A DNA stretch of 64,000 nucleotides from Escherichia phage ELT1. Within the stretch, counting starts at the first letter, position 1. Every line of letters starts with the position of its first letter. Shown in pieces: positions 1 through 6,222 of the stretch. The notes beneath the pieces are model-generated. The model ran no database searches. It saw nothing but the letters and a program-made list of their open reading frames with translations, and had not been told where the DNA came from. The stretch lies in sequence record MZ892903.1. One strand, given 5' to 3'. Position numbers and translations under genes: made by a program.

Positions 1-1
1 T

Positions 2-127
2 TTAATCTCCGTCACGAACTTCTGCGGCTGTAATGAAATCTTTCTTAGCAATGGTAATTAAAATCGCAGCAGTTTTTTCATTCAGAACATCGTTAGAAGC
101 TTTGATGATGTAAGTTACTTTAGACAT
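2..127 (-). CDS. motA: MotA-like N-terminal fragment, 41 codons, stops 2 nt from window edge
   Basis: ATG 125-127 with GGAG RBS; product MSKVTYIIKASNDVLNEKTAAILITIAKKDFITAAEVR + DGD-stop; N-terminus recalled as T4 MotA, which is ~211 aa. Confidence 0.5.
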   Translation of the reverse strand: MSKVTYIIKASNDVLNEKTAAILITIAKKDFITAAEVRDGD

Positions 128-159
128 TTTAATCTCCGTTTCAGTTCATTTATTTGATA

Positions 160-195
160 GGTCTATAGTATCATGTTTAAAGCAGAAGTAAACAC
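160..195 (-). promoter_or_regulatory. T4-type early promoter
   Basis: revcomp GTTTAC at 188-193, extended -10 (TATAGTATCAT-like) at 164-174; recurrent motif family. Confidence 0.45.
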
Positions 196-232
196 TTTTT
201 TGCACTCTTTTTCAAGAGCTCTAATAAAGTAC

Positions 233-2967: not shown

Positions 2968-3183
2968 TTACTCGTCGCAGTCGACGCTCAATTCCCAAAA
3001 CTCTTCTACGGTATAAGTTTCAGTATCATTTTCAATACAGAAACGTTCATTACTGTTATTTGCTAAAGTAGCATTAACTGTCGGTTTCTCGTTAGTGCTC
3101 TTAAGAGGTGAAATACGAATTAACTGATCACCGTTATCTAAACAGAAAATTTCACCAACTTTTATATCTTTAAAAATTTTCAT
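2968..3183 (-). CDS. hypothetical protein, 71 aa
   Basis: ORF track; ndd.1-like position. Confidence 0.45.
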   Translation of the reverse strand: MKIFKDIKVGEIFCLDNGDQLIRISPLKSTNEKPTVNATLANNSNERFCIENDTETYTVEEFWELSVDCDE

Positions 3184-3860: not shown

Positions 3861-4124
3861 TCATAGTTCAATCTCAGCGATTTTCATTTCATTACTATTA
3901 ATAGCCTCTTTAAGACTATCTGAAAGAATTACATTCCAGTGGTCATTCATATGACCATTAACTAAGCGTGTAATTTCTTCAGGAGTTGAAAAATAAGGCT
4001 GATCAGACTCCCAATGCGATAATCCTAAGCGAGTATAAATCATACCTTCATCATCGCTAGAATATTCAACTGACACAAACTCATCAGTTATTTTATGTTT
4101 AGCGTAATAAAATTTAAATTTCAT
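3861..4124 (-). CDS. hypothetical protein, 87 aa
   Basis: ORF 3861-4217 trimmed to MKFKFYYAKHK... start with GGAGGAG RBS. Confidence 0.45.
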   Translation of the reverse strand: MKFKFYYAKHKITDEFVSVEYSSDDEGMIYTRLGLSHWESDQPYFSTPEEITRLVNGHMNDHWNVILSDSLKEAINSNEMKIAEIEL

Positions 4125-4144
4125 TTTTACTCCTCCGTAGTTGA

Positions 4145-4200
4145 TAAGGTAATAGTACCACAGTCCTTGTGGTATGTAAACCGTTTTGTGAAATTTTTTT
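4145..4200 (-). promoter_or_regulatory. T4-type early promoter
   Basis: GTTTAC (revcomp) 4176-4181, -10 4150-4161, CCACAGTCCTTGTGG palindrome in spacer. Confidence 0.45.
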
Positions 4201-4756
4201 AAATGGAAAGATACCATCCGTTGTAGTTGCTTTTTCTTACAACCTTACGAAGGTCTTCTCTGTCACCGATGAACTTCGGAGTGTACTGGATGACACCTGG
4301 ATGAATTTCTTTAGTGTTGAATATAATTATACAGTCCGCGACTTGATGATTAAGAATGGGCCCTAGATTTATTCCAGAACCATATGGATACTCTCCGCTG
4401 CATCCTGTTGTTACAGAAATCCAACGCGAGTCAGTTTGATGTGTCTTAACTTCTACACGGAGCCCGCAGTATTTTGGATGTGCTAAAACATCCCATGCAT
4501 ACGTGTACGGATCATCGACATCTTCTTGACCTTTGTTAACATACCCGCTTAGCCAATCTGCTACAAAAAACTCTGCGTACACCGCGATACGGCATCTTTC
4601 AATAACTTCTGCTTTATCCTGGTTCGGGTTTTGTTTTAAAGAGTATCTTGCAGTATCAGCAATTTTGACCTTCATTTCACTAGTCAAGTCACTGTTCGAT
4701 AGGGTAAATGTCGGAATCTGAAATAGTCTCTGTAAACCTGGATTCGTTTTCTGCAT
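4199..4756 (-). CDS. denB: endonuclease IV (DenB), 185 aa
   Basis: 185-aa ORF; sequence and length match recalled T4 DenB. Confidence 0.8.
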   Translation of the reverse strand: MQKTNPGLQRLFQIPTFTLSNSDLTSEMKVKIADTARYSLKQNPNQDKAEVIERCRIAVYAEFFVADWLSGYVNKGQEDVDDPYTYAWDVLAHPKYCGLRVEVKTHQTDSRWISVTTGCSGEYPYGSGINLGPILNHQVADCIIIFNTKEIHPGVIQYTPKFIGDREDLRKVVRKSNYNGWYLSI

Positions 4757-5018
4757 TTAGACTTTCCTTTTTACCACTAAGATAAGCGTTATATACTTTA
4801 AGAGTACCATAATAAATTCGATCATTTTCATCTAAAGAATTATGATCAAGTTCATCGAGATTCTTTTTATCCATGACTATAATATCATTGCAGTAAAGAA
4901 ACCCAAGTTTTTCGTGACCAAACTCAAATTTATTGCAGTACACAATATTAGCGTGATGATTTCCGTGCAGTTTAATCTCTTTTATGTCGGAATCACCGAT
5001 ATTCATACAATAAATCAT
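4689..5018 (-). CDS. hypothetical protein, 109 aa, overlaps denB 5' end
   Basis: ORF track; between rIIB and denB. Confidence 0.4.
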   Translation of the reverse strand: MIYCMNIGDSDIKEIKLHGNHHANIVYCNKFEFGHEKLGFLYCNDIIVMDKKNLDELDHNSLDENDRIYYGTLKVYNAYLSGKKESLNAENESRFTETISDSDIYPIEQ

Positions 5019-5288: not shown

Positions 5289-6222
5289 TAAATTGTTCAG
5301 TAACGTCTTCAACTACTTCGTATTGGCAGGTACGCATTTTAGCATCGTTGTAATCAATCGGAATTGATACTACATCACGCGGATGTACTTTAACTTTTAC
5401 AACTCGGCTGGTTGAACTGCCAAAGTGACGAATATAAGATTTAGAACACACATGCAGACCACGAGAACAAGTTTGTGTATCATCGTCATTCACACGAGTA
5501 CGTGGCATTTTAACTACTTTACCAGGACTGTTATCAAATGTGTTTGAGTGACAGTCAAAGTAATTGCTGCGAACTACTTTCCAAGCATAGAAGTAACCAT
5601 CTTCTGTAATTTCAATATCGTTTGCTACCAAGAAATCAAAGAGTCGAGATACCGCTTTTTGGCTTGGGTTTTCCAGCAGATTTTCCAAGAACGGAAAATA
5701 AAATTCAAAGTTTTCGCCTTTTTCCATCGAATCAAGAATACGATCAACTAAACCAGACCGCAATTCAATATTTTGATAGAACAAGCTTCCACCTTCAATT
5801 CGAACATCACCGGAAATATATTTTTCAACAGCGCGACGAACGTTAATTTTTTGCGCAGCTTCTTCCAGCTTATCCGCTACAAGCAGATTAAGAATTTCCT
5901 GGAAGTTTGAATGAGTATTAGGAGTTGCGTTATAAGTTACACCGTCAACAGTAATTGAAATGAATTTTTTAGATGCATTCCAAATAATGTCAGATTTAGC
6001 AACTGGAGCAATAACTGCATCGCTATTAACTTTAACTGTAATATCACCGCTAATAGTAACTTTAGGGCGTTTAGCTTCTTCAGCATTTTTCAAAACACGA
6101 CGGATTGTGTCAACCGATACATCCTTCCAATAAGCCAATTCCTGTTGGGTGTAATTACCACTTGAATACAGTTTAACAATTTCAGCTTGTTCGTTTTTGG
6201 TCAGGCATTTAATATTGTACAT
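5284..6222 (-). CDS. rIIB: rIIB rapid-lysis/membrane-associated protein, 312 aa
   Basis: 312-aa ORF; matches recalled T4 rIIB; adjacent to rIIA. Confidence 0.9.
   Translation of the reverse strand: MYNIKCLTKNEQAEIVKLYSSGNYTQQELAYWKDVSVDTIRRVLKNAEEAKRPKVTISGDITVKVNSDAVIAPVAKSDIIWNASKKFISITVDGVTYNATPNTHSNFQEILNLLVADKLEEAAQKINVRRAVEKYISGDVRIEGGSLFYQNIELRSGLVDRILDSMEKGENFEFYFPFLENLLENPSQKAVSRLFDFLVANDIEITEDGYFYAWKVVRSNYFDCHSNTFDNSPGKVVKMPRTRVNDDDTQTCSRGLHVCSKSYIRHFGSSTSRVVKVKVHPRDVVSIPIDYNDAKMRTCQYEVVEDVTEQFK

Follow-up and report, generated by a model that had tools for sequence, protein, structure and literature searches.

Gene content of the window

The window analysed here, a single stretch of 64,000 nucleotides from Escherichia phage ELT1 (sequence record MZ892903.1), comes from a T4-like (Tequatrovirus) genome in which the genes at the left end run along the minus strand in the order gene 52, 52.1, an open reading frame (ORF) of 75 amino acids, and motA. 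Read from left to right, the window therefore presents motA, the 75-amino acid ORF, 52.1 and 52, followed by rIIB and rIIA (Table 1). The early and replication genes, together with rIIB and rIIA, lie further to the right, and the large ones among them are complete and have the sizes expected from T4. At the left edge of the window, motA is represented by an ORF that stops after 41 codons. Because no other large gene of the window is broken and all have the sizes expected from T4, this anomaly at the edge is isolated and structural, and it does not reflect a general decay of the sequence.

Table 1. Features at the left end of the window, with positions counted from its first base
Feature	Position	Strand	Remarks
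Second copy of the motA leader/RBS	1..12	minus	Minus-strand sequence ACGGAGATTAAA; source of the D-G-D-stop that ends the short ORF
41-codon ORF	2..127	minus	MSKVTYIIKASNDVLNEKTAAILITIAKKDFITAAEVRDGD; MotA residues 1-38 followed by D-G-D-stop
Novel junction, leader copy to motA codon 38-39	12..13		Position taken from alignments with ECML-123-2 and DalCa; microhomology 1 nt (T12)
Putative 127-nt repeat unit (fully visible copy)	13..139	minus	motA codons 1-38 and the 12-nt leader; bases 12-139 collinear with relatives
Native motA leader/RBS	128..139	minus	Directly upstream of the motA ATG (125-127)
Early-promoter-like region (T4-type) upstream of motA	140..200	minus	GTTTAC 188-193, 17-nt spacer, TACTAT 165-170; read from the sequence
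75-amino acid ORF	233-460	minus	phrog_10955, function unassigned
52.1	594-743	minus	49 aa
Gene 52	740-2068	minus	442 aa

Comparison of the window with phage sequences by megablast gives a top identity of 98.8% when bases 1-2100 are used as the query and of 97.1% when bases 1-25000 are used, and in both searches the matches listed begin at base 12 of the query or later. No phage record was found by megablast that is at least 99% identical over bases 1-2100. One phage record is at least 99% identical to a part of bases 1-25000; it stands outside the top-ranked matches, so that its coverage of the query is partial, and the matching part is possibly a mosaic segment common to ELT1 and another phage. 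The collections of E. coli genomes and plasmids contain no match to the window sequence.

Exact-protein look-ups covered six products of the window, of which gp52, a product of 87 amino acids and rIIB are carried only by phages that are about 95% identical, and the phages of about 95% identity that share the same gp52, 87-amino acid product or rIIB all have a MotA of 211 amino acids. For the 118-amino acid reading of positions 3861-4217 and for the 71-amino acid ORF at 2968-3183, no exact protein is on record. Three stretches (2644-2683, 4322-4367 and 5827-5869) have no 16-mer in common with any of the T4-like loci that were fetched and are, judged by this sequence comparison, private variants in ndd, denB and rIIB; a 33-mer at 2646-2678 that is specific to the ELT1 genome was absent from IMG/VR, JGI and GTDB in exact searches. 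In the denB region (4199-5018, minus strand) an ORF of 109 amino acids (DUF7418 in relatives) lies upstream of endonuclease IV, and among the relatives this region takes two forms, one with ORFs of 109 and 158 amino acids and the other with a single End_IV ORF of 185 amino acids.

The shortened motA reading frame and the repeated leader

An earlier note on this DNA had claimed that the ORF at the edge begins as MotA and terminates with D-G-D and a stop codon, and both the translation and the comparison with a related protein bear this out. Residues 1-38 are identical to those of the 211-amino acid MotA of phage ECML-123-2, and the minus strand of the ORF ends with ...GAA GTT CGT GAC GGA GAT TAA A. 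Aligned with the Pfam profile of the activation domain (PF09114, MotA_activ), the ORF covers profile positions 1-38 of 95, the MotA of the relative covering positions 1-95, so the activation domain is incomplete. The visible ORF also lacks the DNA-binding domain of the C-terminus (PF09158, MotCF), which may lie past the left edge of the window. The ELT1 locus is like that of T4 MotA (PF09114 and PF09158) in its promoter region and leader, in residues 1-38 and in its site downstream of 52 and 52.1, but it differs in that the visible ORF stops after 41 codons with 38 of the 95 activation-domain positions and without a DNA-binding domain. By its sequence, the 41-amino acid ORF is a MotA fragment, and it is not a member of the family in the functional sense. 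A look-up across 153 billion gene positions found no gene that encodes exactly these 41 amino acids.

The end of the ORF can be accounted for by a copy of the motA leader. The note had also claimed that the first 12 bases are identical to the leader/RBS in front of the motA start codon, and this too was confirmed: the 12-mer TTTAATCTCCGT is present at positions 1-12 and 128-139 and nowhere else on either strand of the 64-kb window, compared to a chance expectation of 0.00 matches in 100 shuffles, and a repeat search gives a start-to-start spacing between the two sites of exactly 127 nt. From the sequence of the minus-strand end and the presence of the leader copy at 1-12, it follows that the D-G-D-stop of the ORF is the leader ACGGAGATTAAA read in the frame of motA.

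In relatives that have the same type of leader, the same 12-mer precedes ATGTCTAAAGTA. When up to one mismatch is allowed, ACGGAGATTAAA has a single occurrence in each of 26 T4-like loci out of 27, in every case in front of ATGTCTAAAGTA, and none in the remaining locus (L009); it is found once in about 108 kb of the remaining DalCa genome, and in the 64-kb window it is still confined to 1-12 and 128-139. Because the 12-mer occurs in T4-like DNA only as the leader of motA, bases 1-12 must be regarded as the leader of motA itself, present a second time, and not as the RBS of some other T4 gene. The earlier note had placed two explanations side by side, a duplication of the 5' region of motA and an inserted element bringing its own RBS; the fact that the 12-mer is only ever the motA leader favours the former and disfavours the latter. 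A start codon would be expected to lie just beyond the edge of the window.

The junction and the intact motA genes of relatives

Bases 1-11 of the window (TTTAATCTCCG) stand where the intact motA of the relatives has CTGGATGCACC, base 12 (T) is common to both, and bases 13-260 are collinear in the alignment with the intact motA and the upstream region of ECML-123-2 and DalCa. The comparison with relatives extended to 496 phage records and about 30 fetched loci. The best matches listed among 898 and 496 phage records all begin at query base 12, and in all 27 of the fetched loci that were compared by BLAST the homology to the window begins at this same base. The 5' segment of motA was located at 496 places in 496 phage records, none of which has two copies. 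MotA has 211 amino acids in every relative whose genes were listed, and both Pfam domains are present in the MotA of the relatives wherever domain hits were listed; the site of motA downstream of genes 52 and 52.1, together with its leader, is conserved in position and is present in the window.

Exact searches for a 25-mer spanning the junction found it in neither IMG/VR, nor the JGI metagenomes, nor the GTDB genomes, and an exact junction 35-mer that was searched in the same way was likewise not found. The natural 23-mer of the uninterrupted motA is present in IMG/VR. A 15-mer, ACGGAGATTAAAATG, returned unrelated contigs among the matches listed for IMG/VR, the pattern being too short for a collection of that size. 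Since the junction 25-mer is absent from the collections and the match to the relatives does not extend past base 12, the junction is private to the ELT1 sequence. Two further origins for it were considered and rejected: a natural allele of motA that diverges at codon 39, because no record extends the match to the left of base 12, and a deletion that fuses motA with a gene further downstream whose RBS is the same, because the genome of a relative has this RBS at no other place.

The region upstream of motA

The region at 140..200 is unchanged relative to the relatives, and the hexamers that can be read in it suggest that it may function as an early promoter. This region is 92% identical to a copy at 483-518, and it was the hexamers of the latter copy that the promoter scan picked up. 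The similarity takes the form of a 36-nt direct repeat (138-173 and 483-518, 92% identical) which places an early-promoter -10/leader region on either side of the 75-amino acid ORF. The ORF and both 36-nt copies are present in KY290975, ECML-123-2 and DalCa, and in the relatives that are without the ORF (MZ065353 and ERZ21883143) just one promoter is present, and it lies directly in front of motA. The ORF with its flanking repeats looks like a promoter-bounded optional gene cassette.

Modular cassettes of the promoter-early-stem-loop (PeSL) type were reportedly described in T4-type phages by Arbiol et al. in 2010. The 75-amino acid ORF of ELT1 is like these cassettes in that it is bounded by the 36-nt promoter/leader repeats and is present in some relatives and absent from others, but the junction of ELT1 is unlike them, because it is located inside the coding sequence of motA, away from any repeat of this kind. 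Positions 571-588 on the minus strand, which separate 52.1 from the first early promoter, form a strong hairpin that resembles a terminator (GGGGAGCTTCGGCTCCCC with a run of T after it), and a terminator is annotated in DalCa at the matching position.

Origin of the junction

The truncation of motA at the edge of the window is probably an artefact: an assembler overlap that was left untrimmed would have produced a tandem duplication of 127 bases, of which the window shows the end. Such an overlap is favoured over a biological duplication by three observations together: the spacing is exactly 127 nt, the two sides of the join share a single nucleotide of microhomology, and the junction is absent from the relatives and the collections. 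The process can be envisaged as follows. A de Bruijn assembler working at k=127 (SPAdes itself or its wrapper Shovill) would produce from a circularly permuted phage a contig in which the last 127 nt are the same as the first 127 nt. If this contig were then re-opened at another coordinate, or circularised, with the overlap untrimmed, the two copies would come to lie side by side and would create the unnatural join ...TTTAATCTCCGT/CACGAAC..., in which the stroke marks the point of joining. Bases 1-12 of the window would then be the last 12 nt of the copy of the 127-nt tandem repeat that lies upstream on the plus strand.

The layout predicted for the minus strand would consist of the early promoter, the leader, motA codons 1-38, the D-G-D-stop, one A, and the ATG of a complete motA of 211 codons. 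In the phage itself there would be a single motA of the normal kind, and both the 41-codon ORF and the 127 extra bases would be confined to the record. From the 12 nt of the other copy that are visible, we infer that the 127-nt unit is repeated over its whole length, with the remaining 115 nt duplicated and a full motA beyond the left edge; the identity of the assembler would follow from the period of the repeat. Under this artefact model the truncation of motA is only apparent, the complete gene should begin just to the left of the window, and the 41-codon ORF is probably a spurious product of the duplication.

Circular contigs assembled by SPAdes with an artificial terminal overlap of 127 bp have been reported (PMC5923482, PMC8104045), and in one of these cases, a coliphage announcement, the 127-bp terminal repeats were removed and the genome was then re-opened (PMC8104045). 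The Phage Annotation Guide points out that contigs can exceed 100% of the genome length and that duplicated regions should be checked (PMC8785237). The case of ELT1 is like the SPAdes overlap in its period of 127, which is the top default k-mer of SPAdes, in the circular permutation of the phage genome, in the presence of the junction in no other genome, and in the arbitrary nature of the join, whose 1-nt microhomology is what is expected for an arbitrary contig break. It is different in that the ELT1 repeat would be internal and tandem and not at the ends of the record, which requires that the contig was re-opened or circularised untrimmed, and in that 12 of the 127 nt are seen.

An artefact of some other kind is unlikely, whether a contig with a chimeric end, a mis-join made by hand or during scaffolding, or an effect of the boundary of the window or the record. 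It would be in keeping with the position of the anomaly at the very edge of the window and with a junction unique to the ELT1 sequence, but a mis-join at random would hardly bring in the leader of motA itself, and at a distance of exactly 127 nt. A tandem duplication of 127 nt that the phage truly carries, and that would place a 41-codon upstream ORF directly before an intact and translationally coupled motA, predicts the same window sequence as the untrimmed overlap does, and nothing inside the window tells the two apart. Such a duplication is nevertheless very unlikely, because its period would have to coincide with the commonest top k-mer of SPAdes, and because the microhomology at the join is just 1 nt, slippage duplications usually arising via longer repeats. 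It is also disfavoured by the other records, in that each of the 496 has the motA 5' segment just once and the 41-amino acid product has never been recorded.

Also very unlikely is a true interruption of motA at codon 38 through an insertion or rearrangement, in which the incoming DNA would bring a leader of the motA type followed by another gene, for example in a cassette bounded by a promoter and RBS or in the form of a homing-endonuclease gene. The 11 visible bases that do not belong to motA leave room for foreign DNA past the edge, and the promoter-bounded optional cassette nearby, with its 75-amino acid ORF and 36-nt repeats, demonstrates that leader-type sequences are duplicated in this region in nature. 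That known cassette sits between genes, however, and not within a coding sequence; the 12-mer, even with 1 mismatch, is present in no other T4-like gene, and the spacing of 127 would have to be a matter of chance. All of the relatives keep an intact MotA, which is needed for middle-mode transcription. The interruption is thus disfavoured by two coincidences, the 12/12 identity to the leader and the 127 offset, together with the loss of an activator that the relatives keep.

Free-standing homing-endonuclease genes and group I introns inserted in T-even genes are similar to what would be required in ELT1, in that they could interrupt a gene and bring their own RBS, but they differ in that the 11 nt seen in ELT1 are the motA leader itself and in that the exon would end in A and not in U. 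The last exon base at a group I 5' splice site is usually U, and on the minus strand of ELT1 it would be A; a group I intron in motA, of which 11 nt would be visible, is therefore unsupported by the base at the splice site.

Implications

If the junction originates, as is probable, from an untrimmed assembler overlap, then its consequences are restricted to curation: the record would be 127 bp too long and would contain, in front of a normal motA, a spurious "MotA fragment" of 41 amino acids, and the extra bases and the fragment should be trimmed. The biological consequences would be of a different order if motA were truly interrupted. In T4, MotA acts together with AsiA to redirect the host RNA polymerase to the middle promoters, and an interrupted motA would imply, with the same very low probability as the interruption itself, a phage without MotA-dependent middle transcription or one in which the activator has been relocated or replaced. 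A real junction would make ELT1 a natural Tequatrovirus whose motA is broken off at codon 38, which would be unexpected.
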